DNA of 62,920 nucleotides, filler included, from Aduncisulcus paluster (lineage: Eukaryota), in assembly GCA_024181965.1 (NCBI GenBank). It is 5 parts of 5 records of this genome, joined end to end, with 100 filler letters (N's around TTAATTAATTAA, not from the genome) between each part and the next. Parts side by side here need not be neighbours in the genome. Positions count along the whole stretch, not along the records: positions 21,418 to 41,055 come from BQXS01009953.1; 4 more parts are not named here. One strand, written 5' to 3'. Of this stretch, positions 10,643 to 57,502 are shown piece by piece; position 1 is the first letter of the stretch; each line of letters opens with the position of its first letter. The translations under genes and the position numbers were made by a program. The notes beneath the pieces were generated by a model, which was given only the letters and a program-made list of their open reading frames with translations, had not been told where the DNA came from and did not search any database.

Positions 10643-10742
10643 NNNNNNNNNNNNNNNNNNNNNNNNNNNNNNNNNNNNNNNNNNNNTTAATTAATTAANN
10701 NNNNNNNNNNNNNNNNNNNNNNNNNNNNNNNNNNNNNNNNNN
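10643..10742. other. Artificial contig-joining linker (N44-TTAATTAATTAA-N44)
   Basis: The same 100-nt spacer with stops in all six frames occurs four times. Confidence 0.97.
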
Positions 10743-21317: not shown

Positions 21318-21417
21318 NNNNNNNNNNNNNNNNNNNNNNNNNNNNNNNNNNNNNNNNNNNNTTAATTAATTAANNNNNNNNNNNNNNNNNNNNNNNNNNN
21401 NNNNNNNNNNNNNNNNN
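21318..21417. other. Artificial contig-joining linker
   Basis: N44-TTAATTAATTAA-N44. Confidence 0.97.
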
Positions 21418-22598: not shown

Positions 22599-23768
22599 TT
22601 ATTTCCATGGAAGTAGAGATAATCTTTCAATAATTTCACTTTCCCCTTGTCTCTTAAAAATGAGGGAATGGATGTTGAAACATCGCCTATTCTTATTGTT
22701 CCACGTTCCTTTACCTTCAATCTCACATAAAATAACATTTGGTAAATCGATAGGTAAGAAGTGCCATTCATAAAAATATTTAGGTCTTGAGAATTCATAC
22801 TTCTTGGATGTCTTCTCCCCATCACAATCAGTAAAAGTCAAGAGAAGAGAGGGTGAACTAAAAAACTTACCCCCACAGATGAGAGCACCTTTGATTGAAC
22901 AAGGCATCATAAAAGGAATTGAGAGATGGGATAAACGTACATAATTTGAGATGCCATATTCCCCTTTTAACATACTTTGAGCTTTTGATACTTGATCATA
23001 AGAGCCAGATTCCTTACCCCTTGAATCATCTTTGCACTTAACCATTGATAATAAAGGCTTTATCAGGTTTGCATTATCAAGAGGAATGCATTTTTCGGCT
23101 TTTGCTTCCTGAAGAAACTTTGGTTTTACAACAGGAGCTTCAGACCACAGGGTCTCTTTGGATTTACGGATTACACTTTCCTCAGGAGTTTCTTTTCGAA
23201 AAAAAGAAAGCGATGCAATTCTAAATCCCTCCTCTTTCTTCTTTGAAATATCACATAAAACAACACCAGTGAGATAAATGGGAAGTTTATACCATAAAAA
23301 ATCTTCTAAAATATCAAATCTAAGTTTTTTGGTTTTATCATTCAGAAATTTGAATCTTCTAGTTGTTTTTACGCCTGTTGATGAAGTGAAGGTGAACTTG
23401 AGATAGGTTGGAATTCTTTCTAGATAATCAAAGCCATTTATACAAATATAAGCACCTTCTATATCAGAAGCAGAAAACGGCACGGAAATGCGGGTAAAGA
23501 GTCTTTGGGTAACGTTTCCACAATGATTTTGATCCATCCCTTTTAGCAGCCTTTGTGCGTCGAGACTTCCATCATATTTTAGATCAAGGGTTGCTTTGAT
23601 GGATGGAAAATCTGGACTTACAATATTGGGGACATCTCGAGGAATTGGACAACAACACAAATCACCATGAGAAAAAATGGGTAACCAATATTCATTTCTA
23701 TCTTCAATAAATAATGGTTTTGTGATGGGAATAGCTATACGAGAGGTTTTGTTGATGCGATATGGCAT
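22599..23768 (-). CDS. Protein with two tandem copies of the unnamed beta-rich domain and an IERLSLLPW tail
   Basis: 389-aa ORF with two repeats of PIP...A..(L/M)LKG...S(V/I)PF..I.GA.IC...(F/L)TFT...G.KT...(F/Y)...W..LPI.L..V.LC(D/E)I....F.I.SL.F. The same motif occurs in the 15545 kinase and in the 38089-41055 genes. Confidence 0.8.
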   Translation of the reverse strand: MPYRINKTSRIAIPITKPLFIEDRNEYWLPIFSHGDLCCCPIPRDVPNIVSPDFPSIKATLDLKYDGSLDAQRLLKGMDQNHCGNVTQRLFTRISVPFSASDIEGAYICINGFDYLERIPTYLKFTFTSSTGVKTTRRFKFLNDKTKKLRFDILEDFLWYKLPIYLTGVVLCDISKKKEEGFRIASLSFFRKETPEESVIRKSKETLWSEAPVVKPKFLQEAKAEKCIPLDNANLIKPLLSMVKCKDDSRGKESGSYDQVSKAQSMLKGEYGISNYVRLSHLSIPFMMPCSIKGALICGGKFFSSPSLLLTFTDCDGEKTSKKYEFSRPKYFYEWHFLPIDLPNVILCEIEGKGTWNNKNRRCFNIHSLIFKRQGESEIIERLSLLPWK

Positions 23769-27569: not shown

Positions 27570-30500
27570 ATGTTGTTTGACGATGATATTGGCAAGTTCC
27601 TTGCCTCTAATTTGAGTGAAAAGGAGCTTACCGAGATTTCAAAGATGTATGGCATTCGAATGAAACATCCTCTGGACTTTGCTTTTCCAGATCCAATGGA
27701 TGTGGCCACATCCAAGAAAATATTTGAAAGGGCTCTAAACAATTTGACAAATCCAGCAAAGGGAAAATCTGGACCTCCTTATCGGGTTATAGCCTGTTTA
27801 ATTATATCTGCTTTACTATCGCCTGCTAAATTATCATTCGCTAGTCATTATGCAACTAGCTTTCAACTTATTATATGGACTCCTATTTTAGATCCTAAAC
27901 CAGAGGTTCGACAAGCAGGATATCAGGTTGTTCGAAGTGTATTCAAATGTATTCAGGCTATGAACAAATTAGATACTCAACCACATATAAATGTTATATT
28001 GAAGACATTAACAAATCTGTATAAACGGCGAGATCGAAAGAAGCATGAAACTCATGGTGCTTTGCTCGTTACAAAAGAACTTTTTAGGTGGCAACATCCA
28101 CCTCATTTATTATTGAATCAATCGCATGTTCTGACTGAAGTCGTTCTTAGCCACTGTCAATCCAAGCATGGATTCGTTCGTGAGGAGGTACTATGTATTC
28201 TTCCTATCATTGCAAAATTCTATGCTGACAATGATCTGGTTCAACCTTATAATTTTCTCAATCATGTGTTAAACTTTATTTTATCATCTTTAAGAAGTGG
28301 AAACCTCACAAGGTCGAAGATGCTTAATGCACTTGGCGACATTGCTATGACAGTTGGGGAGGAGATTGGAGCCTTTGTTAAGATCATTATTGATGATGCT
28401 ATTCTCTCATCATTGCCCGTTCCTGGGTCGTCTTCAACATTTTCAACTCAATCCATCAACGATGCCCTCTTGTGTCTTTCGAAACTCTCTGTCGCGTGTC
28501 CTATTGCCCTTAACAAAAACAAACTCATGTTCAGGGGCATTCTCAATACCATTTTCCATACTCCGTTCTCATACGAACTCGTCTCTACCCTTGCCAACAT
28601 CGCCAGTCACATGCCTCCCCACCTCCACTTTATTCAGATCAATCTTCTCAATGTTATCAGTGTCACCCTCTGCGGTGTGCTCCTCAAATTTGTCCACACC
28701 GATATCGTGGATTCTGAGGAAATTCAGAGTCAGTGGGATGTTGAGGCGAATAGAAGTGGCCGAGAGAGCAAGCGAAGGAGAGCCCTTCGAGAAGTGAGGG
28801 CAGGCATCTCCCTTGACCATCCATCGAAAGTCCATGGTCCTAGTCCTATTATTTCTACTCCAGGAGGCACTGGAACTCCCCTTCCCCTCTCCTCTTCATC
28901 TCTGAGTCTCCTTTCCGGTGGTACTGGGGGTGCCCATGACTCCTCCGCCGTCTCAGTCTCATCGCGATCCTCGGGATCCCATGATGATATCTTCACTCCC
29001 GGAGGTAGTATGCTTGGGAGACCGAGAAGAAGCAGCCTCAGCAGTCGTTGGAGCGGTAGCAGCGTGACCTTTGGCTCTGGTAGCAAACTGAGTAACAGTG
29101 AACGAGTCAGGAGGAAGGCCATTGAACAAGGTGAGAGGAGAAGAAAGGAAAGAGTGAAGAAAGAACTAGAAAAAATGCACGGAAAAGATAGCACGGCGTC
29201 TCCAACTTTGTCTGATTCCAGAGCAAAGACCTCAGGGAATGCCAGTTCTTCCTCCTCTTCTTCTTCCACATCAGCTTCTGTGGCTTCCAGTTCCTCCACT
29301 ATCAAACCAAGCAAGAACCAACAACTTGTTGCCACTCTTGACTCATCTTTGAAGAGTCAACAGGGCTTTCTCTCTGATGGAAGGACGAGAGATTTGTGCA
29401 TATTCAGTGATATTAGCTCTCTTTCAACCTTAGTCAAGAATGCCACGGCCTCGCACACTTCATCTCAGCTTCAAACACACACAAAGATGATTATTCTTGC
29501 CCTTCAAACACTCACTCAGTTCCCATTTAATCACAGTGTGTCTCTGACTGATTTCTGTGCCGACGTCGTTGTCACGTACCTTGACCATCCAAATCCTCTC
29601 ATTCGTCAGCTTGCTGCTCAAGCCTGTCTTCGCCTTGCCGTGCGCAAAGGAAAAGAGACTCCCACTGTTGGATATCAATCTCTTCTTGTATCTGAGATTC
29701 TCGCCCGTGTTCTCATTGTTGGTGTGAGTGATTTGTGCGTACATGTCCGAGAGAAGATAATTACTGCACTCTCACAACGATATGATGCACTCTTGGCACA
29801 AGAAGAGCTGTTATCGACTCTTGTGACTGGTTTACAGGATGAGAATACCAATGTCCGAGCCTGGGTGATCTTTGTGTGTGGACGATTGTTGCACCACAAT
29901 CCTACGCACATCATTCCTCCGCTCCGTCGCCTTGTTATGTTTGTCCTGAATGAGATTGAGCTTGCATCGAGCATGTCTGCCAAGACAAATGCCGCCAAAC
30001 TACTTGGGATCATCACTTCCTCAGCCCCATCGGTTGTGCAACCTTATCTTCAAGTCGTTCTCTCCACCCTTCCATCTGTAATCCCTGCCTCATTCTCCTC
30101 TTCTCATCTCACTCCTGTCCAGCAGCGCGAAGAGGAGGCTCTGGTGGTGGCTGTCACTCAGTGCATTGAGATTATTTGTAAAACGTGTGACATGGAGATT
30201 GTGTTGTTGCATTTTATCCCATCTGTCGTACCTTATCTTATATCCTTGCTCCGAGATAAAGCTAATAAGCCTCACAAGAAAATTCATGCCCTGAAGACTC
30301 TAACCGCAGTGTTTGAGTGCATTGGAACAGCCACTGAACCTTACGTGCAGTTCTCACATCTCTTGCCTTTGTTACTTGCCATACTTAAAAGAGAAACTAG
30401 TCCCCACATTAAGAGTGAGATCTTACGTCTCTTGGGGACTCTCGGAGCTTTGAGTCCAGTAGCCGTTCAACGTCTCGAGGAAGGGGAAGATTTCTCAACG

Positions 30501-33500
30501 TCTCGTGCCGTTCTCTCTGCCGGTGGATTCTCGGTAGATTTGTCGGCTATCGTTGAACAAGTTGGAAGTGGTGATGGAGCTGTATTCCTCACACAACACT
30601 CTCTAACTCGTAGTGCGGCCGATGATGCTGAAAGACGTCGAGGAAGGGGTCAGAATAGTCACGGTGGAGCGACTTCCTCCTCGTATTCTGCTTCCTCATC
30701 GAGATCTCCCTCAGATCCGACTCTAAACCCTTCGCTACTCTCATCTACACCTCCATTCTCTTCCTCAACCTCACATATCACCGATAGAGTCAACGAGATT
30801 CAAGATCTCATGATTCAGGGTGTTCTCACCGGTGTGAATACTCGAGGCAGGGGAGACACAGAGTCTGGGAGTAGATGTGGACTTCGTATGGCCCCGTTGA
30901 GAGAGAATATTAGAGTACAAAGGGAAGGAAGGAGGAACTATGAAGATAAAATCCTCAAGAGTGGTAAGCATCATGACTTGACAATTGCTCAAGAGGTTGC
31001 TCAGAGCAAACATAAACAATATATCCCGGAACATCAACGAAGGATTGCTGACCGCCCTGCCACCCTCATTGATATTTCTGCTGAGGACGAGGATTATGTC
31101 CCCCTTATTCATCCACATACTCGGAGTCTGTTATTCTATAATAGGAACAGAGAAACTCAACTTTTGAGGAGGATAAAGGATGACAACCCACAAGAAGTTG
31201 CTCCTTTGACCAATCCTTCTCTTGTTGGTGATACCAATATCCACTCTGACGTTTTACACTCCGTCTTGGCAGTTCTCTCTGATGCTTCTCTATACCCATT
31301 CCATACGTCTGCTGTCGAGTGTGTCGGTGCTCTCGTGTGCGTGATGGATGAGAATAATCTTAAACATCACATGACCGAATTGCTTGACAAAATTGGTGAG
31401 ATGCTTAAGGGAGGGAGAAGAACAGATATTGAGGAACAACCAGCACAGATTGGAGAGAAGAAAGGTTCCAAGAATGCTAATGCTACCTCCACTGGTGCCA
31501 ATTCCTCTTCATCGCCTTCCCTCACGATATCTCTGTTCGATTGTTTTACTTTAATTGTCCACACCACAAAACATGCAGTGAGGCCCCATCTCGAATGGTT
31601 GTTCGAATGCACAACAAACTATTGGCCAAGTGTTGAGCATGCTGCCGACTTGTCCTCTTCTTCCAAACTCTTGGAATTGTACCATCTCCTTGCATTCGTT
31701 GAGGAGATAAGTGTAAGTATTGCTGATGATTTTAGAATGGTATTACCATGGGTTCTACCACGTTTATTGGGAGTTATCAATGTTGATCGTGTGTGTGCTG
31801 GTATCGTAACTTCACACGGAAAGTCGGCGTCCACACATGCCCATTCATTCGCTGCTGCTCAAGCTGTGTTGAAGACTATCAGAGTTATTGGTGTTCATCT
31901 TGGAGAGTATGTCCATATTGTGCTTTCTAACGTTATCGACGAAGTCAGCATCGTTCCTGGGCGTTTAAGTAACACTTCGCTGAGATTGGAGGCCCTGTAC
32001 ACAACAGAATACCTTGTCAGAGCTTTAAATTTAAGCCAATATGTCAGTAGAATCACTGTGCCAATTTGTAGGATGCTCGATAGCTGTGTATGCGTGACAA
32101 AGGGACGTTTTATGATTCAAGGGAGTGGATATTCAAGCTCTGGATCTGTGTCAGGAGCCTCTAGCACATGGGGTGGTTTTGACAGCTCAGCTCAAACGGT
32201 TGAAGATGATCGATTGATCCAAATGAGTTCGAACAAGATGTTTAATTTCGGTCACGATTATTCAACTTCATGTGCTCCTTCTTCAGCCAAACCCATCTCT
32301 CCCTCTGATCTGCACCTTCTTGGCATCAATCAAGTCAGACTCAATAAGCTTGTTGCGGCTGGCATTAATGTTTTATTTGCTCTCATGCAACGAGTCGGAG
32401 TCCCTTTCTCTATTTTCATACCCACTGTGAATTCCGTGATGGTTCGTGTCAAGGAAGCCTTCAGCGTTAGTGCTGTGATGTGGAGGTATGAGCGATGTGT
32501 TGAGAAAATCCTTCGTGAAGAGCATGTGAAGAACACTGGACCATCTTGCTCTGCTGCTGGATTCCCACAGATATTTGGAGCCCTCAATCTTGTCAACCCT
32601 GTCACGTCATCCTCTTTCCTTTCATCGCCAGCTGCAAGTGTTGTCAGTGTGTGCATTGGTGGGGAGTATGGAGATGAGGATCAAGATGAAGCTGGTGTCA
32701 TTAGTAATGGTATCAGAGTTCGAGTCGGTGAAGGTGGGTACATTAACCTTTCTCAGCCACATTTAAAAGAAATGGTCCAAGTCAATTGGAATGTAGAAAC
32801 ATGCACAACTGTCCACGATTGGCACTCTTGGTTCAATCAATTATCTCTGACCCTCCTTGCTTCATCTCCTTCTCTTGCCCTTCGAGCTGTGAGTAACCTT
32901 GCTCGTTTCCCAGACACACATCTCTCTCGGAGTTTGTTCCAGATTTCATTCACTATTCTATACAAATACAACGATAAACGTGTACAAACCCTTCTCCTTG
33001 CCCATGTTATGCGTGTGCTTCAGAGTGATAATATTCCTCCGGAATATAGACAGTTATTGCTGGATCTTATTGAGCATTTGGAAAGGGAATGCGTCATTAC
33101 AAAATATAAGTTCAAGATGTTAAGTGAGCTCTCCCTCAAATGTTATGCCTATGCAAAGGCTCTGCACTACCAAGAGGCCTGTTTTGACCAAGAACCTAAC
33201 ATCCAGATGGGCGAGAGGTTGATTCATACATTTACCCAGCTTGGACAGAGATCGGCCGCCGTGGGAGTCCTTGCTCTGTTACAACGGAAATATAAGGACG
33301 TCGGGAGTTTCACCACTCACACAGAGAAATGGTTCGAGAAACTTGGTGCTTGGGACAATGCTCTTGTTCAATACAACAAACATATTGGATCTCTTCTCGA
33401 AGAAGGAAGTGGGATGACAGGTGTGGATATATCCAAGAAATCGACAGATGGTGAAACCTCACAAACGACTGGAATTAAAGAAAAGAATAAGTCTTCTGCC

Positions 33501-36500
33501 GAAGGGAAACATCCTCTTCCTGCCTCAATGTCTCCTCTTGGAAGTTCCATAGATGCTTCTGTGAGTACTCCTGACCTTGGTTCTGGCAAGACCCCTGTTC
33601 CTCTGTGCTTCACTCATTATCAATCAACTCGTTTGCTGCCATTGTTGATGGGCAGACTTCGTTGTCTTGAAGGACTGGGCCTGTGGAAGGAAGCTCTGGC
33701 AACAACTCAAGATGCTCTTGCTCTCCCTCACTCTCCCTCTCATCATACTGAACTAGCTCTGCATGGAGCTCACTGCGCCTTCAATGTGTCAGATTGGAGT
33801 ACACTCTCACTCTACACTCCCCATATTCCTTCCAATACTGTCCAAGGAATGTTCTATCGTTGTGTGTGTGCTGTGTGTCTTGGCAACTACCAAAGCGCAC
33901 TCAAGCTCATTCAACGAACAAGGTCGATGCTTGAAATGCGGATATGTGGTGTTCTGAGTGAGTCTTATAACAGATCCTATGGTGATCTTGTGATTAACCA
34001 ACAATTAGTAGAGCTTGAGGAAATTATTGAGTTCAATGTCCACTCACAGCATGCAAGGAATGAGAGAGATATGGATCTTGATGGAGGTGAAGAGGAAGTC
34101 GTGTTGAAGAGAAGAAAGCGTCTTGAAAGAGTTTGGGAACAACGTTTGATTGGATGTGAAAGGAACACAAATGTATGGACCCAGCTTTTGTCTGTTCGGC
34201 AGCTTCTTGATGTTGGAGAACCCACAATTGGTGTTGACAGTCCGCTTGCTCAGGGTGATTCGGAAAGACATGCTGAGCGAGTATCCCCCAAAATTGAAGA
34301 AATTGCTTCCACCACAGATCTTCATAGTACTGCTAATTTGTCACGTACTGATTCATCCCCTGCCAATCTTGTTCCCTCTACAAGTCTGACAACATTCGAA
34401 AACACTCCAACTTCAATATCTTCTCCAGGTATGTCTATTGCCTCTTCTCTCACTTCCCCAGGATCCAATCTCTCCGTTCATTCGCATACAATTGACACGG
34501 AACAATACATACCTTGGATTGCCTTCTCTTCACTCTCTAGGCAAGATGGAAAGGAGAAATTAGCAAGGAATATATTGATACATCTCATTGGAGAAGAACC
34601 ATGGGCAAAGAGTTACGAAGGTGAACGTTATTTGCTTGAGAATGGTGGAAGAATAGTGTCTCCAAGTTGTACTCGTGGAGGTGGATCTACATGTGATTCT
34701 GGATCATTGCATCGTTCATCGCCCCATTTATCACTCTCAGCGACACCATCTCCTTCACCTCCTCCGACGTTCATGTTCTGCCATCCTCTGGGAGCACCCA
34801 TGCCATTCGCTACACACCGTCACACTGCCCTTGTTGCATACTGTAACCACTTATGGGAGGTTGGAGAGCGTTGGATGGGATATGAGTTGCTCCATGGACT
34901 CATTGTGAGTGGAGGTAAATCCGAGAGAGTTGAAGAAGTCCGTTCTGAAGTTGTTGATTTCTTCATGAACAACGTGAAGGTTGTCAAGGAACAGATTGAC
35001 GATGAAGCTCCAAGCGATGACACATTTTTGCCTACATTTGATGTGCCTCCCCTTGCTCCATCATTGCCGTCAGCCTCTACGATGATATCTCCACGAGGGA
35101 ATGCCGAAGAACGCAGAGGAACTCTCGACGGGCGGATATTCTACAATCAAGCCGAAATGGAGGATGAGGATATTCTATCTATACATGGCTCGGATCAACA
35201 AGTTTCGAATCAACNNNNNNNNNNNNNNNNNNNNCTTGCTCCATCATTGCCGTCAGCCTCTACGATGATATCTCCACGAGGGAATGCCGAAGAACGCAGA
35301 GGAACTCTCGACGGGCGGATATTCTACAATCAAGCCGAAATGGAGGATGAGGATATTCTATCTATACATGGCTCGGATCAACAAGTTTCGAATCAACAAC
35401 CTGATGTAACGCTAACAACACCGCCTTTCCCGTTTGCCAGTTCAAAATCATTCTCGTCCATTTCTAATTCCCTTGCTCCAGCACTCTCTGCATCTGCACT
35501 GTTGATGTTCGGGGATTGGAGCATTGTTCTTGCCAAGGAAGGATATTTCGATGAGGAAGAAACACGTGGGCATGCCTTGGAGTTATATGAGGAAGCCACA
35601 TCTGTCTGTCGCGAGAGTACGTATGCTTGGCGACGAGTTGCCTACACTTGTGTCAAACTGTCCGAATTTAAGGCGAAAACTCTTAGAACTCTGAGTCAAG
35701 CCAAACCAGATTCAAAGGATGCGTTCGATACACATCTTGCAAACCAACAACGCAAGACATTGATTGAAAAAGAGCTAGATAGGCTCTTGAGCAAAGCTAT
35801 ATATGCACTATTGCAATCCATTTCCCTTGAACATCGTGCAGGAAAGCAGGAAGGATCGTTACCAGATGTGCTCTGTTTGTTGAATATATGGTTCGAGTAT
35901 GGAACGTATAGTGGTGTTGAGATGGCTGTAATTCGTTCATTTAGCGTCATATCTCCCGATCTCTGGCTCTTGGTTACTCCTCAGATCATTGCTAGGATCG
36001 ATTGTGGACATTTGAAGCACCTTGTCCGCGAGTTGCTCATATCTCTGGGTTCTGTTCATCCTCAATCCCTCGTGTATCCACTCGCCGTTACAAGCAAATC
36101 TCAGCGTCTTGGAAGGCAGGATGATTCCTTAAGTATCATCGATCGCATCCGTCGTGGATATACAACATTGGTCGACCAAGCCCTTCTTGTTTCTGAAGAG
36201 CTCGTGAGAGTCAGTGTTCTGTTCGAGGAAAGATGGTCAGGGTTGCTTGATCGTACCAATAATAGGCTGGCTCAGAATGTATCCGTGCCCGATATGAATG
36301 ATTTTGTCTCCTCTCTTGTTCCTCTGCAGGCATCTCTTGATGAAGTCGCTGAAACACCCGCTGAAGATTATTTTATCAAAGATTTTAGACCCTTATTGGA
36401 TGAAGCTTTCATTTATATCCGTAAATTCCTTGTGAACGGTCAAAAGGCTGACTTTAACACGGCTTGGAACAAGTATACACACATTAACAAGCTTTTGGGG

Positions 36501-37784
36501 AACAAATTTAAACAGACCAAGAGCTTGATATTGTCAATGGTGTCACCTGATCTGCTATCATGTCGTAATCTTGAGCTTGTTGCACCCGGAGGATATTCCC
36601 CCTTCCTTCCTGCCATTCGAATTAATCGATTCCACCCAATTTTGAGTGTGATCTCTTCAAAACAGCGTCCTAGACGTCTGTTGATCAACGGAGATGATGG
36701 TGCTAGTTATGCCTATCTCTTAAAGGGCCACGAGGATTTGAGGCTTGACGAGAGAGCCATGCAACTGTTTGGTTTGATTAATGTTCTGTTGAGTGCAGAC
36801 AGAAGGTGCAGTAAGCGTGATCTCGTTATCACTTCATATTCCTCTGTCCCTCTTTCGCCCAATAGTGGTATTCTTTCGTGGGTTCCTCAGACAGATACCA
36901 TCCATTCCCTCATTGAGATGAATCGGACTGCTCGTCGATGGTCGCATGATGTCGAGGCAAGGGTCATGAACAAGGAGTGCCATGAGTATAGAATTGTCAC
37001 ACTGAACCAGAGAATTGAGGCCATTAAAGATGTACATAGGGAAACCCCCGGGACTGATATTCGTGATATGATGTGGTTACGTGCTCCTTCATCACAACAA
37101 TGGTTCCTTCGTAGGACAAATTATACACATACTCTTGCTTTAACATCAATGGTTGGGTATGTTATCGGACTCGGAGATCGGCATCCGGCCAATATTATGG
37201 TTCATCGTGTGAGTGGTCGTGTTCTCCATATCGATTATGGTGATACCTTTGAAGTTGCAATGGAGCGTGCCAACTTCCCAGAGCGCATTCCTTTCCGTCT
37301 CACTCGTGTTCTTGTAAAGGGTCTGGACATTGGAGGTATATACGGTGCCTTCAAAATTACTTGCGAGCTTAGTATGATTTTATTGCGACGATCTAGAGAT
37401 TCCTTGATTTCTATGTTGCAAGCCTTTGTGTATGATCCCCTTTTGACATGGGTAACTGAAGAAGAAAAGAAGAGGGATAAAAGCTCAAGTCGCGATGAGA
37501 GAGGTAAAACTACAACGAAAAAAGGAGATCCTTTGAAACCTGAGCAACCTGAGGATGAAGTGAATTCCCTCCTTGGTAGTAATGGTGGTGAGGTGAGAAA
37601 TATCCGTGCTTTGAAGATTTTGGATAGAATCAAAGCAAAACTCAGTGGAAAAGATTTCTTTGATGCATCTCGATGCAATTCAGAAGTTTTGTCTGCTGAA
37701 AATCAAGTTTTGAAGCTTATTGCTCAAGCCACAAACATGGAGAATATCTGTGCCTGTTATTGGGGATGGTGTGCTCATTTGTGA
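27570..37784 (+). CDS. TOR: Target of rapamycin kinase (HEAT-FAT-FRB-PIKK-FATC), about 3343 aa after removing a gap-flanking duplication
   Basis: Motifs CYAYAKALHYQE, ESYNRSY, WLLVTPQIIAR, HPQSLVYPLAV, SSKQRPRR, YLLKGHEDLRLDERAMQLFGLIN, GLGDRHPAN, HIDYGD, FPERIPFRLTR, AFVYDPL, and FATC ENICACYWGWC. Confidence 0.96.
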   Translation: MLFDDDIGKFLASNLSEKELTEISKMYGIRMKHPLDFAFPDPMDVATSKKIFERALNNLTNPAKGKSGPPYRVIACLIISALLSPAKLSFASHYATSFQLIIWTPILDPKPEVRQAGYQVVRSVFKCIQAMNKLDTQPHINVILKTLTNLYKRRDRKKHETHGALLVTKELFRWQHPPHLLLNQSHVLTEVVLSHCQSKHGFVREEVLCILPIIAKFYADNDLVQPYNFLNHVLNFILSSLRSGNLTRSKMLNALGDIAMTVGEEIGAFVKIIIDDAILSSLPVPGSSSTFSTQSINDALLCLSKLSVACPIALNKNKLMFRGILNTIFHTPFSYELVSTLANIASHMPPHLHFIQINLLNVISVTLCGVLLKFVHTDIVDSEEIQSQWDVEANRSGRESKRRRALREVRAGISLDHPSKVHGPSPIISTPGGTGTPLPLSSSSLSLLSGGTGGAHDSSAVSVSSRSSGSHDDIFTPGGSMLGRPRRSSLSSRWSGSSVTFGSGSKLSNSERVRRKAIEQGERRRKERVKKELEKMHGKDSTASPTLSDSRAKTSGNASSSSSSSSTSASVASSSSTIKPSKNQQLVATLDSSLKSQQGFLSDGRTRDLCIFSDISSLSTLVKNATASHTSSQLQTHTKMIILALQTLTQFPFNHSVSLTDFCADVVVTYLDHPNPLIRQLAAQACLRLAVRKGKETPTVGYQSLLVSEILARVLIVGVSDLCVHVREKIITALSQRYDALLAQEELLSTLVTGLQDENTNVRAWVIFVCGRLLHHNPTHIIPPLRRLVMFVLNEIELASSMSAKTNAAKLLGIITSSAPSVVQPYLQVVLSTLPSVIPASFSSSHLTPVQQREEEALVVAVTQCIEIICKTCDMEIVLLHFIPSVVPYLISLLRDKANKPHKKIHALKTLTAVFECIGTATEPYVQFSHLLPLLLAILKRETSPHIKSEILRLLGTLGALSPVAVQRLEEGEDFSTSRAVLSAGGFSVDLSAIVEQVGSGDGAVFLTQHSLTRSAADDAERRRGRGQNSHGGATSSSYSASSSRSPSDPTLNPSLLSSTPPFSSSTSHITDRVNEIQDLMIQGVLTGVNTRGRGDTESGSRCGLRMAPLRENIRVQREGRRNYEDKILKSGKHHDLTIAQEVAQSKHKQYIPEHQRRIADRPATLIDISAEDEDYVPLIHPHTRSLLFYNRNRETQLLRRIKDDNPQEVAPLTNPSLVGDTNIHSDVLHSVLAVLSDASLYPFHTSAVECVGALVCVMDENNLKHHMTELLDKIGEMLKGGRRTDIEEQPAQIGEKKGSKNANATSTGANSSSSPSLTISLFDCFTLIVHTTKHAVRPHLEWLFECTTNYWPSVEHAADLSSSSKLLELYHLLAFVEEISVSIADDFRMVLPWVLPRLLGVINVDRVCAGIVTSHGKSASTHAHSFAAAQAVLKTIRVIGVHLGEYVHIVLSNVIDEVSIVPGRLSNTSLRLEALYTTEYLVRALNLSQYVSRITVPICRMLDSCVCVTKGRFMIQGSGYSSSGSVSGASSTWGGFDSSAQTVEDDRLIQMSSNKMFNFGHDYSTSCAPSSAKPISPSDLHLLGINQVRLNKLVAAGINVLFALMQRVGVPFSIFIPTVNSVMVRVKEAFSVSAVMWRYERCVEKILREEHVKNTGPSCSAAGFPQIFGALNLVNPVTSSSFLSSPAASVVSVCIGGEYGDEDQDEAGVISNGIRVRVGEGGYINLSQPHLKEMVQVNWNVETCTTVHDWHSWFNQLSLTLLASSPSLALRAVSNLARFPDTHLSRSLFQISFTILYKYNDKRVQTLLLAHVMRVLQSDNIPPEYRQLLLDLIEHLERECVITKYKFKMLSELSLKCYAYAKALHYQEACFDQEPNIQMGERLIHTFTQLGQRSAAVGVLALLQRKYKDVGSFTTHTEKWFEKLGAWDNALVQYNKHIGSLLEEGSGMTGVDISKKSTDGETSQTTGIKEKNKSSAEGKHPLPASMSPLGSSIDASVSTPDLGSGKTPVPLCFTHYQSTRLLPLLMGRLRCLEGLGLWKEALATTQDALALPHSPSHHTELALHGAHCAFNVSDWSTLSLYTPHIPSNTVQGMFYRCVCAVCLGNYQSALKLIQRTRSMLEMRICGVLSESYNRSYGDLVINQQLVELEEIIEFNVHSQHARNERDMDLDGGEEEVVLKRRKRLERVWEQRLIGCERNTNVWTQLLSVRQLLDVGEPTIGVDSPLAQGDSERHAERVSPKIEEIASTTDLHSTANLSRTDSSPANLVPSTSLTTFENTPTSISSPGMSIASSLTSPGSNLSVHSHTIDTEQYIPWIAFSSLSRQDGKEKLARNILIHLIGEEPWAKSYEGERYLLENGGRIVSPSCTRGGGSTCDSGSLHRSSPHLSLSATPSPSPPPTFMFCHPLGAPMPFATHRHTALVAYCNHLWEVGERWMGYELLHGLIVSGGKSERVEEVRSEVVDFFMNNVKVVKEQIDDEAPSDDTFLPTFDVPPLAPSLPSASTMISPRGNAEERRGTLDGRIFYNQAEMEDEDILSIHGSDQQVSNQXXXXXXXLAPSLPSASTMISPRGNAEERRGTLDGRIFYNQAEMEDEDILSIHGSDQQVSNQQPDVTLTTPPFPFASSKSFSSISNSLAPALSASALLMFGDWSIVLAKEGYFDEEETRGHALELYEEATSVCRESTYAWRRVAYTCVKLSEFKAKTLRTLSQAKPDSKDAFDTHLANQQRKTLIEKELDRLLSKAIYALLQSISLEHRAGKQEGSLPDVLCLLNIWFEYGTYSGVEMAVIRSFSVISPDLWLLVTPQIIARIDCGHLKHLVRELLISLGSVHPQSLVYPLAVTSKSQRLGRQDDSLSIIDRIRRGYTTLVDQALLVSEELVRVSVLFEERWSGLLDRTNNRLAQNVSVPDMNDFVSSLVPLQASLDEVAETPAEDYFIKDFRPLLDEAFIYIRKFLVNGQKADFNTAWNKYTHINKLLGNKFKQTKSLILSMVSPDLLSCRNLELVAPGGYSPFLPAIRINRFHPILSVISSKQRPRRLLINGDDGASYAYLLKGHEDLRLDERAMQLFGLINVLLSADRRCSKRDLVITSYSSVPLSPNSGILSWVPQTDTIHSLIEMNRTARRWSHDVEARVMNKECHEYRIVTLNQRIEAIKDVHRETPGTDIRDMMWLRAPSSQQWFLRRTNYTHTLALTSMVGYVIGLGDRHPANIMVHRVSGRVLHIDYGDTFEVAMERANFPERIPFRLTRVLVKGLDIGGIYGAFKITCELSMILLRRSRDSLISMLQAFVYDPLLTWVTEEEKKRDKSSSRDERGKTTTKKGDPLKPEQPEDEVNSLLGSNGGEVRNIRALKILDRIKAKLSGKDFFDASRCNSEVLSAENQVLKLIAQATNMENICACYWGWCAHL
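35052..35397. other. Scaffolding artefact: 163 bp duplicated either side of a 20-N gap
   Basis: 35052-35214 is identical to 35235-35397. The net +183 nt keeps TOR in frame. Confidence 0.9.
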
Positions 37785-38088
37785 GTGAAATGGTATGCAC
37801 ACTATTATTAGCACTGATTAACCGGAACGCTCTTACTTTTTGAGCATTTAGATATTCTTCTAAACGCAATTTTATATGGGCATGAAAAAGATCGAATCGT
37901 GATGATCAGACTCTCAACCGTAGAGAGTTACACCGTAAGAGGGAGAGTTACTCCAATCGGCAAGTGAATACGAATAGACAAATGCAAGATGTTTTAGAAT
38001 AAAGGCTTTACTTTTTGTGAACATGAAACATTCCAAGATTACGTAAATATAACACGTTTTGAGACCATCGTCTTCACGTGAAACATTG

Positions 38089-38622
38089 TTACAGTATCAT
38101 ACAACATCCAGAAGTATCACGACAGAAAAAAATCCCGTTTAAATGATTTTGTGTGAGGTCACCATTCCATGTAGAAATGATCTCAATTTTACAAGAAATA
38201 ACTGGGGTAATCAGTTCAAGGGGGAATCGTTGCCAAAAGTAATGTTGAGAATCACGCTTTTCCATCCGGAACCTATGAACAATAGTCTGTTCCCCACAAC
38301 ACAGTTTTTCACAACAGAACGTAATCTTGAAGTCTTTGATCCCATGTGGCCAACTATGTTGGCTTACATAGAACGACTCGAGAAATTCTGATTCAACAAA
38401 TGGAAGGAACAATTGAGATTCGAAGGAAAAATGTCTTTTCCCTTGTAGGAACTTTTCTAATTCCCTCTCTCCTTCGGAAAATTTAGGATTTAAGTTCCCA
38501 AGAGCTTTGCTCTCATCAATTTTGGCCACACGAGGATCATCAGGTTCATATGGGGCTTTTCCAAAAAGAGAGTCCCCACACTTTTTCCCAAGATCAACAA
38601 CAGTTTTACCAATTATCGGCAT
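38089..38622 (-). CDS. Stand-alone unnamed beta-rich domain protein ending in a CaaX box (GCCMIL)
   Basis: 177 aa. Shares IIGK, LFLPF, HSWPHGIKDF, HYFWQRFP and VISCKIEIISTW with the adjacent array. It ends C-M-I-L-stop with an upstream Cys. Confidence 0.8.
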   Translation of the reverse strand: MPIIGKTVVDLGKKCGDSLFGKAPYEPDDPRVAKIDESKALGNLNPKFSEGERELEKFLQGKRHFSFESQLFLPFVESEFLESFYVSQHSWPHGIKDFKITFCCEKLCCGEQTIVHRFRMEKRDSQHYFWQRFPLELITPVISCKIEIISTWNGDLTQNHLNGIFFCRDTSGCCMIL

Positions 38623-38895
38623 TGTATATCAAGCGTATAAATATATTGTGCAAGGAAAAAACAGAAATAGTTTCTGAATCTTGCAACCATCCCAAAAATA
38701 GAAATGTGAGGGCCAATCTCAAGTTAATCTCTCCAGGCCGCATATAACAATCGTATTAGTTGTAAGACACACGAAAATGAGTTGTTTTAGAAAATAATAA
38801 TCGGAAATAAACCATTAATATCGCAGTGAAACGTCAAAATTCAAAGAAATGAGGATCAAAGAAATGATCAATATTTTGATCATCAAGATCAACTT

Positions 38896-39471
38896 CTACA
38901 ACCATGGCAACATCGACAATCGTTCAATGGTTGCAAGTTCATGCTCTTTAGTGGCTAAAATTATCTCTCGCTTCTTGTCAATCACAAATCGAATGGCTTG
39001 CAAATTAATAAAATCTTGTTTTCCATCCCATGACGATATAACATGAATATCACAAGAAATAACATTATCAAGATCTATAGGGAATTCTTGCCAGAAATAA
39101 TGATCTGGAGGCATCTCCCCCATTTGATATTCTTTTGTAATCTTCTTTCCATTAGATGTTGTGAATGTAGCATCGAAATCTTTGATTCCATATGGCCAAT
39201 TATGATGACTTACAAGAAACTTACTGAGATAATATGGTGTAAGAAATGGAAGATGTAAATTGGGAAAGAAATAGATGTATTCTTGACCTCTTAAGAACTT
39301 CAATAAAAAAGAATGCTTATAACGACTATGATAATCCCCATATGCTTTGAATCCATCGATTTCAGATAGATCTGGATGACCAACAGGGTAGGGGCCTTTA
39401 AACACTTTCTCAAAGTCAAACAATCCATCACATCCAAGAATATCTAGAATACATTTGCCAATAATTCTCAT
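38896..39471 (-). CDS. Tandem-array member A of the unnamed domain family (ends ELATIERLSMLPWL)
   Basis: Likely ATG start MRIIGK at 39471 (or 39474). Paralogous to 39872-40432. Confidence 0.85.
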   Translation of the reverse strand: MRIIGKCILDILGCDGLFDFEKVFKGPYPVGHPDLSEIDGFKAYGDYHSRYKHSFLLKFLRGQEYIYFFPNLHLPFLTPYYLSKFLVSHHNWPYGIKDFDATFTTSNGKKITKEYQMGEMPPDHYFWQEFPIDLDNVISCDIHVISSWDGKQDFINLQAIRFVIDKKREIILATKEHELATIERLSMLPWL

Positions 39472-39871
39472 CATACACAATAACACAACTATAGTTTATC
39501 CAATATCAAATTAAATAATAGAATAATAAACACCAATAACCTTCCAATTGCAAGGAAAAACACAATTTTACAATTGTCTTGGAACAGAACAATAATATCC
39601 AAAATCGATGTTTCTTATCATTATTATTATACACACGTGATAATAAATTATTTATTTTGTAAACACATTTGTTCTCCAAATAAGGCGTACTCAGACATTG
39701 TTGACATTATTGACAATACAGCGATATAAACATGAAAGTGACAATATACACATGGTATCCATCATATCTCAAGACATGACAGGAAGTAATGGTTCATACA
39801 ATACAACATTTGTATGTTTGCTAGAAGAGGTTATAAATATTCAATCATGGCTGTAACGAAAGAAAGATATT

Positions 39872-40432
39872 CTATAACCATGGAAGCATCGATAATCGTT
39901 CAATGGTTGCAAGTTCATGCTCTTTGGCGGCTTTCTTTTTCTCTTGCTTCTTGTCAATCACGAATCGAATGCCATACAAATAAATAAAATCTTGTTTTCC
40001 ATCCAGCGTTGATATAACATGAATATCACAAGAAATAACATTATCAATATCTATAGGAAACTCTTGCCAGAAATAATGGTACGATGGCATCTCTCCCATT
40101 TGGTATTCTTTTGTAATCTTCTTGCCATCAGATGTTGTGAATGTGGCATTGAAATCTTTGATTCCATGAGGAAAACTATGATGACTAACAAGCAACTTAC
40201 TGAGATAATGTCGTAAATTAAATGGAAGATGTAAATTGGGATAGAAAAAGATCGAATCTTTACCTCTTACGAATTGCAATAATCTAGAATGATTATGACC
40301 ATGATGATAATCCCCATATGCTTTGGATCCGTCAATTTCAGATAGATCTGGATGACCAGTAGGGTAGGGGCCTTTGTACAGTTTGCCCCAATCAAATCTA
40401 AAATCTTCAATGCATTTGCCAATAATTCTCAT
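39872..40432 (-). CDS. Tandem-array member B of the unnamed domain family
   Basis: MRIIGK...ELATIERLSMLPWL; about 76% identical to member A by manual alignment. Confidence 0.85.
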   Translation of the reverse strand: MRIIGKCIEDFRFDWGKLYKGPYPTGHPDLSEIDGSKAYGDYHHGHNHSRLLQFVRGKDSIFFYPNLHLPFNLRHYLSKLLVSHHSFPHGIKDFNATFTTSDGKKITKEYQMGEMPSYHYFWQEFPIDIDNVISCDIHVISTLDGKQDFIYLYGIRFVIDKKQEKKKAAKEHELATIERLSMLPWL

Positions 40433-40826
40433 CACAAACAATAACACAACTATGGATTATCTAATATCAAATTAAATAATAGAATAATAAACACAAATAA
40501 CCTTCCAATTGCAAGGAAAAGCACGTTTTTATAATTGTCTTGGAACAGAACAATAATATCCAAAATCGATGTTTCTTATCATTATTAATATGCATACATG
40601 ATAATAAATCATTTATTTTGTAAACACATTTGTTCTCCAAATAAGGCGTACTCAGACATTGTTGACATTATTGACAATACAGCGATATAAACATGAAAGT
40701 GACAATATACACATGGTATCCATCATATCTCAAGACATGACAGGAAGTAATGGTTCATACAATATGATTGTTATCAGGAAAGAAGTTGTATTCAATCCTT
40801 GTGGAAACGATGATATGAAGGATCAG

Positions 40827-41055
40827 CTATAACCACGGCAACATCGATAATCGTTCAATGGTTGCAAGTTCAGCTTTCGTTTTCTCTTGTTAGGTCATAT
40901 TCCATAGCCTTCTTCTTTTCTTGTTCTTTATCAATCACGAATCGAATGGCTTGCAAAAAAATGTTTCTTTGTTTTCCATCCCACGACGATATAACATGAA
41001 TATCACAAGAAATAACATTATCAATATCTATCGGGAACTCTTGCCAGAAATGATG
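40827..41055 (-). pseudogene. Tandem-array member C, 5'-truncated by the contig end, with a frameshift before the conserved tail
   Basis: Reads HHFWQEFPIDIDNVISCDIHVISSWDGKQRNIFLQAIRFVIDKEQEKKKAMEYDLTRENES, with TGA at 40872-40870. The ELATIERLSMLPWL tail lies in the +1 frame, ending at TAG 40829-40827. Confidence 0.7.
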
Positions 41056-41155
41056 NNNNNNNNNNNNNNNNNNNNNNNNNNNNNNNNNNNNNNNNNNNNT
41101 TAATTAATTAANNNNNNNNNNNNNNNNNNNNNNNNNNNNNNNNNNNNNNNNNNNN
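41056..41155. other. Artificial contig-joining linker
   Basis: N44-TTAATTAATTAA-N44. Confidence 0.97.
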
Positions 41156-41157
41156 GT

Positions 41158-42546
41158 CCTGTTTCTGATGATCTTGGTTTGTGCAGTGGATCTTCTCGTG
41201 GAACATGTGATGCTGCCACCCATACATGTGTGTGTGAGTCTGGGTATTATGGCTCAGCATGCAACCTTTATTGTGATAATTTGTCAAGATGTGGTCTGCA
41301 TGGTCAATGTGCTGTTGGTGATCTCTCTTCAGATTCTTCTGAGACTTCCTCTTCTGAGACATTGTATTGTGAATGTGATGCTGGTTGGTATGGGTCAACA
41401 TGTTCTTCCCAATATCCTGTTGAGACTGTTGAGTATGTGAATGATGATGATGAAACAAACCCGACGATCGTTGATTACGTGTGTGGAGTTAATTACTCTA
41501 CAAATCCATCTTCATCATATTCAGCCGATGGAATCTATTCATCAGACACTGACACATATTCGTGTGACTGTTCCTCCTATGGTCTCATCACTGATGCATC
41601 CACATCCACATGCATTGATCCTGCGACTCACCCTGAATACAAGGACATTGCTGGAAATGACACTGCTTGCTTGACCTGTGGCACAACCACGGATAGTCAT
41701 GGCATATGTGTTCTTGGTGAAGGAGAAGATAGTCTCACAGCCATGTGTCAGTGTGAGTATGGATGGGGAAATTTTGATGATAGTACATCCATCTCATGCT
41801 CTTATGACATGTGTGGAGTAACTGCCGATTCTTACTCTGAAAGTAGCGAAGATCCATCCTCTTTGTGTTCATCTCATGGAATGTGCAATTCATATACTTA
41901 TGCCGATTCCAATGCATTAAATATTCAATATGGATGCATGTGTGATATTGGCTGGAACGGTATGATGTGTGATGAAGAAGATAATAATTCATTGAAAATA
42001 TTTGTGTGGATTTCTGTAATCGTATTATTAATTTCGATTGGATTTAGCATTCTTGGATTTACGTTTTGGTTCCGTCTAAGAAAAAAGAATCTAACCACAG
42101 TGAATGCCTGGAGTCCAAGTAATTCTTCACTCGTCATTCCTTCTGATTTTGCTGAGAGTACACCAACTGTTGTACAGGTCAGAGATGACCCTTCCTTGCA
42201 TGAATCTTTGTCAACTACTCTTGAAACTTCGAGCTATGTGACTGTCAAAAGGAGAAAGAAAGTATCTGATTCAAAGGAAGAAAAAGAAAAGAAAAAGGTT
42301 GAAATCAAATCAAAAAAGAAGAAAAAGAAAGAAAAGAAGCCAAAGAAGAGCAAGAAAAGAAAGAGAGAGCTTGATCACCAAGAACAAAATGAATTCGAAG
42401 GAGAAGACGACGGTAAAGAAGTGGAATTAGAGATGTCAAAGAAAGAAGATATTACAAAATCAAAAAAGGAGAAGCTAAAGAAAAAAAGGAAAGGGAAATC
42501 CAAACCCAAACATAAGTTAAAACCCATTGATTCTCCACATGAATAG
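41158..42546 (+). CDS. Cys-rich EGF/tenascin-like repeat single-pass membrane protein (5'-partial)
   Basis: Repeated CxCxxG(W/Y)xGxxC motifs (CVCESGYYGSAC, CECDAGWYGSTC, CMCDIGWNGMMC), a hydrophobic helix IFVWISVIVLLISIGFSILGFTFWF followed by RLRKK, and a Lys-rich tail. Confidence 0.85.
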   Translation, partial: PVSDDLGLCSGSSRGTCDAATHTCVCESGYYGSACNLYCDNLSRCGLHGQCAVGDLSSDSSETSSSETLYCECDAGWYGSTCSSQYPVETVEYVNDDDETNPTIVDYVCGVNYSTNPSSSYSADGIYSSDTDTYSCDCSSYGLITDASTSTCIDPATHPEYKDIAGNDTACLTCGTTTDSHGICVLGEGEDSLTAMCQCEYGWGNFDDSTSISCSYDMCGVTADSYSESSEDPSSLCSSHGMCNSYTYADSNALNIQYGCMCDIGWNGMMCDEEDNNSLKIFVWISVIVLLISIGFSILGFTFWFRLRKKNLTTVNAWSPSNSSLVIPSDFAESTPTVVQVRDDPSLHESLSTTLETSSYVTVKRRKKVSDSKEEKEKKKVEIKSKKKKKKEKKPKKSKKRKRELDHQEQNEFEGEDDGKEVELEMSKKEDITKSKKEKLKKKRKGKSKPKHKLKPIDSPHE

Positions 42547-57402: not shown

Positions 57403-57502
57403 NNNNNNNNNNNNNNNNNNNNNNNNNNNNNNNNNNNNNNNNNNNNTTAATTAATTAANNNNNNNNNNNNNNNNNNNNNNNNNNNNNNNNNNNNNNNNNN
57501 NN
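57403..57502. other. Artificial contig-joining linker
   Basis: N44-TTAATTAATTAA-N44. Confidence 0.97.

Follow-up and report, generated by a model that had tools for sequence, protein, structure and literature searches.

A uniform upstream block in a tandem array of discoidin/DOC-like paralogues of Aduncisulcus paluster

Why should the proteins of neighbouring gene copies differ far more than the non-coding DNA that separates them? This question is raised by a tandem array of four small paralogous genes, C, A, B and D, located at positions 38089-41055 of a 62,920-base stretch of the genome of Aduncisulcus paluster (hereafter, the window), which comprises several contigs joined by linkers of the form N44-TTAATTAATTAA-N44; neighbours across linkers are physically unlinked. 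The genes are arranged head to tail, as stated in the preliminary description of this locus; they lie on the minus strand, with the transcription order D, B, A, C, and they form the terminal part of a 19,638-nt contig (21418-41055). The preliminary description took the contrast between the fast proteins and the slow spacers as a sign of diversifying selection in a variable recognition repertoire. Comparison of the spacers with the synonymous sites of the genes gives another answer: the outlier is the unusually uniform spacer, not unusually fast proteins.

Between the non-coding block upstream of A (39477-39803) and its counterpart upstream of B (40438-40764), 13 of 327 positions are different (96.0% identity), in agreement with the earlier count of about 13 differences. 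The longest run identical between them is 154 nt in length (39650-39803 = 40611-40764) and corresponds to the distal part for which about 150 identical bp had been reported. The homology of the blocks continues directly into the coding sequence (CDS), where nucleotide identity between A and B ranges from 50 to 94% in 50-nt windows and is mostly 76-92%. At the opposite end, identity leaps from noise to 100% at 39803/39804. Beyond this boundary the 3' flanks of B and D are weakly alignable (alignment z 3.2, p 0.004, with several indels), and the 3' flank of A aligns with neither the B flank nor the D flank (z -0.2 and 0.6, respectively). Conservation of the block peaks far from the ATG and falls towards it.

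Proteins A and B differ at 45 of 187 aligned residues, or at 44 of 186 without the first codon, which is ATG in A and GTG in B, and by a five-residue indel; both the manual count of the preliminary description (about 44 of 186) and the short patches in which it placed the changes agree with the A-B alignment. Calculated by the NG86 method, 27.0 synonymous differences are distributed over 110.5 sites (proportion of synonymous differences, pS, 0.244; synonymous divergence, dS, 0.30), and 60.0 nonsynonymous differences over 450.5 sites (nonsynonymous divergence, dN, 0.147); across four methods, dS is 0.19-0.34 and dN is 0.13-0.15. The synonymous sites (27/110) are also much more diverged than the block (13/327, p=3e-9), the spacer being about six-fold less diverged. 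The same is found in the comparison of the block with four-fold sites (7/45, p=0.0055), and of the identical tract with these sites (0/154 vs 7/45, p=2e-5). Because synonymous sites, and not only the proteins, are far more diverged than the spacer, the contrast points to homogenisation or constraint of the spacer rather than to accelerated protein change, and it is not the sign of diversifying selection for which it was taken.

The segments of the repeat unit show an apparent order of age, in which the flank is the oldest, followed by the CDS, the proximal block and the distal block. Adjoining segments of unlike age are the pattern expected from segmental exchange, that is, from a mosaic history. 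A block that is less diverged than neutral coding sites and has a sharp end, here at 39803/39804, is what concerted evolution predicts, with constraint as the alternative reading.

The explanation proposed here, with moderate confidence, is a lineage-specific birth-and-death family of intracellular discoidin/DOC-like modules, in which the core is constrained, while coding patches are shuffled, and the upstream block of neighbours is made uniform, by frequent segmental exchange. Each gene encodes a small protein (about 190 aa, no signal peptide), in which a predicted galactose-binding-like (discoidin/DOC-like) beta-sandwich is followed by a C-terminal helix and then by a tail, either ...ERLSMLPWL (A, B, and D before a frameshift) or a CaaX box (C). 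The beta core is under purifying selection, with the N-terminal segment, several loops and the helix almost free to vary, and gene conversion or unequal recombination would move segments between the paralogues. This exchange most likely also reset the 327-bp block upstream of the neighbours A and B, and the spacer would for this reason appear slower than the proteins. The block is presumably the promoter and 5' untranslated region (UTR) of A-type genes, and selection on a common regulatory sequence may add to its uniformity; we infer, nevertheless, that conversion rather than constraint is chiefly behind it.

Mosaicism among the paralogues was tested at the protein level. A test of the pairwise homoplasy index (PHI) type was applied to 13 full-length close paralogues of the 24-row alignment A1 (67 informative columns), leaving out gene C and P0024-26, which are too distant, P0009, P0012, P0013 and P0015, which are truncated, and P0016, P0018 and P0020, which have long tails. 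It gave p=0.024, 0.065 and 0.0035 for windows of 5, 10 and 15 sites, respectively. A run-length test in the spirit of GENECONV (28 sequences, 109 variable columns) found 45 of 378 pairs at p<=0.01 against 3.8 expected, 15 of them at p<=0.001. A gene-conversion test of the kind suggested in the preliminary description is positive for the proteins, although assembly chimeras would give a like signal. In the pair A-P0022, 26 consecutive variable columns (A residues 124-175) are identical, against 60% identity over the 78 shared variable columns (p<=0.0005). In three of the five segments compared (31-60, 61-95 and 151-191), protein B resembles P0009 and P0006, which are encoded elsewhere than on its own contig, more closely than it does the adjacent A.

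Purifying selection alone, without recent conversion, could also keep the block near-invariant if it were a functional element, such as a promoter, a 5' UTR, an upstream open reading frame (ORF) or a 5'-UTR intron, and this account keeps a minor but real share of the probability. It is consistent with the position of the block next to the start codon, with the sharp onset of homology at 39803, which resembles the edge of an element, with the lack of the block upstream of the differently tailed gene C, and with the presence of a 24-codon ATG ORF inside the invariant part. However, identity at 154 of 154 positions beside a synonymous divergence of about 0.3 exceeds the conservation of the protein core itself, and conservation that is highest away from the ATG and decays towards it is the reverse of that of a core promoter. 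The lack of an RNA-family match and of excess folding energy also counts against this account. The 24-codon ORF, MMDTMCILSLSCLYRCIVNNVNNV, is located at 39691-39765 (minus strand), with its copy at 40652-40726, and lies wholly within the identical tract; it could be an upstream ORF or a chance occurrence.

Three other identities of the block were considered and rejected. A structured RNA is disfavoured by the lack of Rfam matches inside the block at E<=1, the sole match in 37785-41055 being a chance-level microRNA at 40924-40962, and by a folding-energy z-score of 0.25 on both strands; the inverted repeats found are two in number and weak. A decayed gene copy is not supported, since the family hidden Markov model applied to six-frame translations of all intergenic pieces recovered only D's own tail; blastn of the spacer against the CDS returned only chance words. 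As to a dispersed mobile element, blastn revealed no further copy of the block within the window, the stretch upstream of gene C included, and the homology runs unbroken into the CDS. A 41-nt stretch from the identical tract has no exact matches in bacterial and archaeal genomes.

The protein family was not recognised in the preliminary description, and it has neither a Pfam model nor a sequence relative in the PDB. In the Pfam search of A, B, C and D at E<=1, only chance-level matches to pXO2-34 and HTH_92 were obtained, both far under the cut-offs, while PF00754 (F5_F8_type_C), APC10 (presumably PF03256), Muskelin_N and Sad1_UNC (SUN) were not matched at this threshold. The A1 family profile gave no match to PDB sequences at E<=10. 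In the structure prediction that had been suggested, the AlphaFold2 model of A, built from the 24-row alignment, is confident (predicted local distance difference test, pLDDT, 92.1; predicted template modelling score, pTM, 0.86) and contains a mainly-beta domain followed by a helix at residues 166-186. Foldseek found 28 matches in the PDB at E<=1e-3, and all those listed are galactose-binding-like, with query-normalised template modelling (TM) scores of 0.37-0.51; they include APC10/DOC1, CBM32, the muskelin discoidin domain, F5/8 type C, the GnT-IVa lectin domain, SUN and XRCC1-N. In a language-model atlas, the closest named clusters are F5/8 type C (PF00754), with a score of 0.94. By the predicted model, the fold is a galactose-binding-like jelly roll with a C-terminal helix, and the sequence family is undescribed. 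No description of it was found in the literature on the Aduncisulcus genome, gene families or fold, and supplementary tables might hold annotation.

Out of 53 candidates, 29 form the close family (E<=0.01): 27 are named A. paluster proteins, one comes from the transcriptome of this organism and one is the window's own; the named relatives are all A. paluster hypothetical proteins. At the level of the profile, 137 representatives (50% clustering) are matched at E<=1e-3 and 93 at E<=1e-10, and the highest number of domains is 13 matched stretches in one protein of 2,714 aa. The Pfam scan of 68 representatives revealed protein kinase domains in 13 (11 above the curated cut-off), Ras-family GTPase domains in four, a thioredoxin domain in one and nothing in 50. 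A kinase fusion is present in the window itself, in the 786-aa ORF (15753-18113). In bacterial and archaeal genomes, 77 pattern matches were found, none of which was confirmed by tblastn. Considering the named members, this multigene family has so far been seen only in Aduncisulcus paluster (Fornicata, Metamonada). The longer members P0016, P0018, P0019, P0020, P0030 and P0058, one of them a Ras-domain fusion, have in common a tail of about 100-200 residues with the motif ...DLMSDFISSTQQRFEELEKKLSDEKEQR...; it continues the C-terminal helix and looks coiled-coil by eye, and it may be a second common module shuffled with the jelly roll.

The cellular location of these proteins bears directly on the proposed repertoire. 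Neither a signal peptide nor a membrane span was seen in the array proteins by the AlphaFold2 N-terminus or the hydrophobicity filter. In protein A, the N-terminus lies inside the fold, with a mean pLDDT of 94 for residues 1-10 and DSSP strands at residues 3-4 and 6-10. A crude filter for a hydrophobic 19-mer (Kyte-Doolittle >=1.8) identified none near the N-terminus in 130 representatives, and such stretches occur elsewhere in 11. The C-terminus of gene C, ...SGCCMIL, fits a predicted CaaX-type prenylation box (Cys-aliphatic-aliphatic-X), and a Cys residue at position -4 is present in five of the 130 representatives; the CaaX-type C-termini of relatives are CMIL, CCIV, CTVV, CTIV and CDIM. 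The CaaX box is a cytosolic modification. The lack of a signal peptide and of a membrane span, together with a CaaX tail on one copy, makes a surface or secreted repertoire unlikely, and these features point to intracellular proteins. An intracellular recognition role may still apply. The proteins would act as intracellular binding modules for peptide, protein or glycan, with the variable loops as the binding end, and may be tied to kinase and small-GTPase signalling.

A variable recognition repertoire for immune, prey or parasite ligands, in which diversifying selection has driven the loops apart on a conserved scaffold, is unlikely. The contrast of variable loops with a fixed framework is itself well founded: over 20 close paralogues, entropy is 0.48 bits per position in strands, 1.10 in loops and 1.22 in helices, with hot spots at A residues 9-25, 49-50, 55, 58, 64-67, 78, 92-94, 123, 153-158 and 170-180, so that the strands are fixed and the variation lies in the loops, the helix and the N-terminal segment. 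In 30-codon sliding windows of the A-B comparison, the ratio is about 0.1 over codons 91-140 and about 1 to 1.7 over codons 21-100 and 151-180, and the local ratio of nonsynonymous to synonymous proportions (pN/pS) reaches 1.5-1.7 in codons 41-80 and 151-180. A repertoire would also suit the use of this fold by lectins and peptide receptors, the size and lineage specificity of the family, and the diet of A. paluster, which uses bacteria as food (PMC9933649). On the other hand, faster change in loops than in strands is the default in any beta-sandwich, the domain is also fused to cytosolic kinases and Ras-like GTPases, and the proteins carry no signal peptide or membrane span.

The codon analysis argues in the same direction, although it includes a single full-length gene pair (A-B) available as DNA and its power is low either way. 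The dN/dS ratio of the whole gene is 0.4-0.7 (NG86 0.52, LWL85 0.70, YN00 0.50, and maximum likelihood 0.40), and dS comparable to or above dN was part of what the preliminary description had named as refuting its own proposal. No window or patch is significantly above 1. The differing codons with their neighbours, the variable patches of the earlier proposal, show no excess of nonsynonymous change (pN 0.269 vs pS 0.280; 59/219 vs 15/54, p=1), and the top 30-codon window, with a ratio of 1.7, is not significant (16/72 vs 2/18, p=0.51). Over the 55 codons that gene D shares with A and B, dS is far beyond that of the A-B pair, namely 0.65-0.79 by three methods and 0.37-0.38 by LWL85, the YN00 value being for A-D only. 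Thus, the beta core is constrained and the loops appear to be nearly neutral or weakly diversifying; diversifying selection is without statistical support here, and individual loop sites could still be subject to it.

Several points weigh against the proposed birth-and-death family with segmental exchange. The block comparison involves two copies only, and conversion and purifying selection on a regulatory element are inseparable in it. The ATG-proximal 173 nt of the block, which hold all 13 differences, are not significantly below four-fold sites (7/45, p=0.14), so that the excess conservation rests mainly on the 154-nt tract. Among the mosaicism tests, one of the three PHI-type windows is not significant, the run-length permutation presumes an equal match probability over variable columns, and many of the top runs fall in the slowly varying tail (167-191), which inflates their significance. 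The assembly is built from Illumina reads only, which could overstate the uniformity of the spacer, and chimeric or collapsed paralogues in it could produce an apparent identical tract as well as apparent mosaics. The fold assignment is accompanied by low Foldseek TM-scores of 0.37-0.51 and by no sequence link to any described family, and the placement of loops 91-95, 117-124 and 148-154, which would lie on one end of the sandwich, derives solely from the alternation of loops in the secondary-structure string.

Assembly error as the whole explanation, by which a consensus path through a repeat common to dozens of paralogues would make the spacer identity and part of the mosaicism unreal, is improbable: it draws on the Illumina 150-bp paired-end reads from fragments of about 500 bp, assembled by MaSuRCA into 25,863 contigs with an N50 of 4.6 kb (PMC9933649), on an identical tract (154 nt) that barely exceeds the read length, on the contig break within copy D at the most conserved coding stretch, and on a repeat of about 54 aa around the 20-N gap of the TOR gene in the same contig, but the assembly gives two distinct sequences for the units, which differ at 13 positions of the proximal block and by about 14% in the CDS and whose flanks are unrelated, genes B and C are predicted genes in the source record, and a related transcript, P0026, comes from an independent transcriptome.

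Among known systems, the APC10/DOC1 domain and the discoidin domain of muskelin are intracellular, galactose-binding-like and part of ubiquitin-ligase complexes; they are cytosolic single beta-sandwiches that lack a signal peptide and act as binding modules. They also provide the best structural matches to the Aduncisulcus domain (5khu_L, E 7.3e-5, TM 0.48; 1jhj; 4oyu_A). The Aduncisulcus family differs in having no sequence similarity to them (Pfam E<=1, PDB E<=10) and no sign of an E3-ligase context, in its dozens of copies, and in an N-terminal segment, a C-terminal helix and a tail (LPWL or CaaX) that are peculiar to it. F5/8 type C and CBM32 domains, which are mostly secreted or extracellular, share with it the fold class (4uap_A, 3nng_A, 4lqr), the PF00754 atlas clusters noted above and variable loops on a fixed sandwich. 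Unlike them, the Aduncisulcus family is not matched by PF00754, the TM-scores are 0.37-0.6, and no conserved CBM32/discoidin binding motif is alignable.

Variant surface or secreted repertoires, of which we take the Giardia VSPs (variant-specific surface proteins) to be an example, resemble the Aduncisulcus family in their mosaic paralogues, as judged for the latter by protein-level tests in which assembly chimeras are possible; the Aduncisulcus proteins differ in having no signal peptide or anchor that would expose the variable part. Concerted evolution is reported, from what is said of Trypanosoma brucei, to leave mosaic paralogues in tandem gene arrays. The present array resembles such arrays in its head-to-tail units, in segments of very unequal divergence lying side by side and in sharp-ended identical tracts. 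The difference is that here the non-coding block is homogenised and the coding loops are diverse, as far as two compared copies of the block tell.

The Dictyostelium discoidins are similar to the Aduncisulcus proteins in being small, in lacking a signal peptide, in having a discoidin-fold domain, in forming a small multigene family and in having a phagotrophic host. According to a preprint, these cytosolic lectins sense bacterial glycans, which would favour a recognition repertoire in A. paluster as well; the same work states that binding is performed by a second, H-type lectin domain and that recognition requires this domain rather than the discoidin domain, which would count against it (bioRxiv 10.64898/2026.06.18.733164). 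The H-type lectin domain is absent from the Aduncisulcus family, and no sequence relationship between the two was found. If a cytosolic repertoire does exist in A. paluster, its logic would be comparable to the lectin surveillance of the Dictyostelium cytosol, but with an undescribed domain family.

The features of the array and the related features of the window are listed in Table 1.

Table 1. Coordinates of the array, the remoter domain copies and the linkers in the window
Feature	Position	Strand	Description
786-aa ORF	15753-18113	+	domain at about 16044-16484 (E 1.3e-7), N-terminal to a protein kinase domain; other contig
389-aa ORF	22599-23768	-	C-terminal part is a distant domain copy (tblastn E 1e-13, 29% identity); no Pfam match; about 15 kb from the array, same contig
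Gene C	38089-38622	-	divergent paralogue, 177 aa, C-terminus ...SGCCMIL; found as ORF and by tblastn with A
A-C intergenic stretch	38623-38895	-	without conserved block by blastn
Gene A	38896-39474	-	192 aa (191 from second ATG); one jelly-roll domain (predicted), C-terminal helix, LPWL tail
Conserved block upstream of A	39477-39803	-	non-coding, 28% G+C; includes the identical tract 39650-39803
3' flank of B	39804-39871	-	fast-diverging; weakly alignable to the D flank
Gene B	39872-40435	-	187 aa (186 from ATG); P0004
Conserved block upstream of B (copy 2)	40438-40764	-	non-coding
3' flank of D and tail-coding stretch	40765-40869	-	family tail 40827-40871 (family frame), out of frame in D
Gene D	40870-41055	-	3' fragment of fourth paralogue, 61 codons and TGA stop; cut by contig end
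Linkers	10643-10742, 21318-21417, 41056-41155, 57403-57502		N44-TTAATTAATTAA-N44

Gene C is a divergent paralogue, with 37-38% identity to A (tblastn with A, E 7.5e-29), and its closest relatives are P0035, with the C-terminus CMIL, and P0163, both A. paluster hypothetical proteins. A second contig, of 15,094 nt, seems to repeat the pairing of a C-type with an A-type gene; it carries ADUPG1_012013 and ADUPG1_012014, whose adjacency is deduced from the locus tags. The protein of gene A was absent from the results of the protein-collection search, in which those of its neighbours B (P0004) and C (P0161) were returned; gene A probably lacks annotation in the public record. Two remoter copies of the domain are found elsewhere in the window, in the 389-aa and 786-aa ORFs.

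In gene D, the tail ELATIERLSMLPWL was matched by tblastn at 40830-40871 in a frame that differs from that of the gene body. An additional 22 nt ahead of the conserved tail (repeat spacing 955 vs 977) put the tail out of frame and result in an early TGA. In the old frame, the tail of D shows only synonymous differences from those of A and B, which suggests that the frameshift is recent, that D is turning into a pseudogene, or that the sequence contains an error.

The standard genetic code is in use, as long ORFs are intact under it and stop at TAA, TAG and TGA alike; the alternative code of some diplomonads, in which TAA and TAG encode Gln, was rejected on the same grounds. Upstream of the array and convergent with it, the same contig contains an intronless ORF for a TOR kinase (27570-37784, plus strand, 3,404 codons) with the domains FAT, mTOR_dom, FRB, PI3_PI4_kinase and FATC. 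The window contains two 20-N scaffold gaps; at one of them, 35215-35234, a stretch of about 54 aa of the TOR ORF is present on either side, as though an overlap had been left unmerged there; the contig of the array would then contain an assembly artefact. The next contig encodes at 41179-42546 (plus strand) a Cys-rich protein with EGF-like domains (Teneurin-like EGF, EGF_2), which by eye has a hydrophobic stretch and a lysine-rich tail, as in a single-pass surface protein.

A protein divergence above that of the spacers does not by itself show diversifying selection; in this array it is the spacer that stands out. Inferences of this kind can also be led astray by short-read assembly of paralogue arrays. 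The locus would be a compact case of conversion that homogenises regulatory DNA while shuffling coding variation, provided that the mosaic exchange is real. In the array, the sequence family is new, and both its fold and the evolutionary process on display are well known. A bolder view, which has a low probability, is that the bacterivore A. paluster would maintain a large intracellular repertoire of discoidin/DOC-like domains, free, lipid-anchored, fused to kinases or Ras, and concatenated up to 13 times, in which loop specificities would be reshuffled by conversion and promoters kept uniform, providing cytosolic germline-encoded recognition or signalling for molecules of prey or symbionts. 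In any case, an undescribed domain family, for which there is no Pfam model, is greatly expanded in a little-studied free-living flagellate related to Giardia, and, being joined with kinases and small GTPases, this domain may be a lineage-specific signalling or recognition module.

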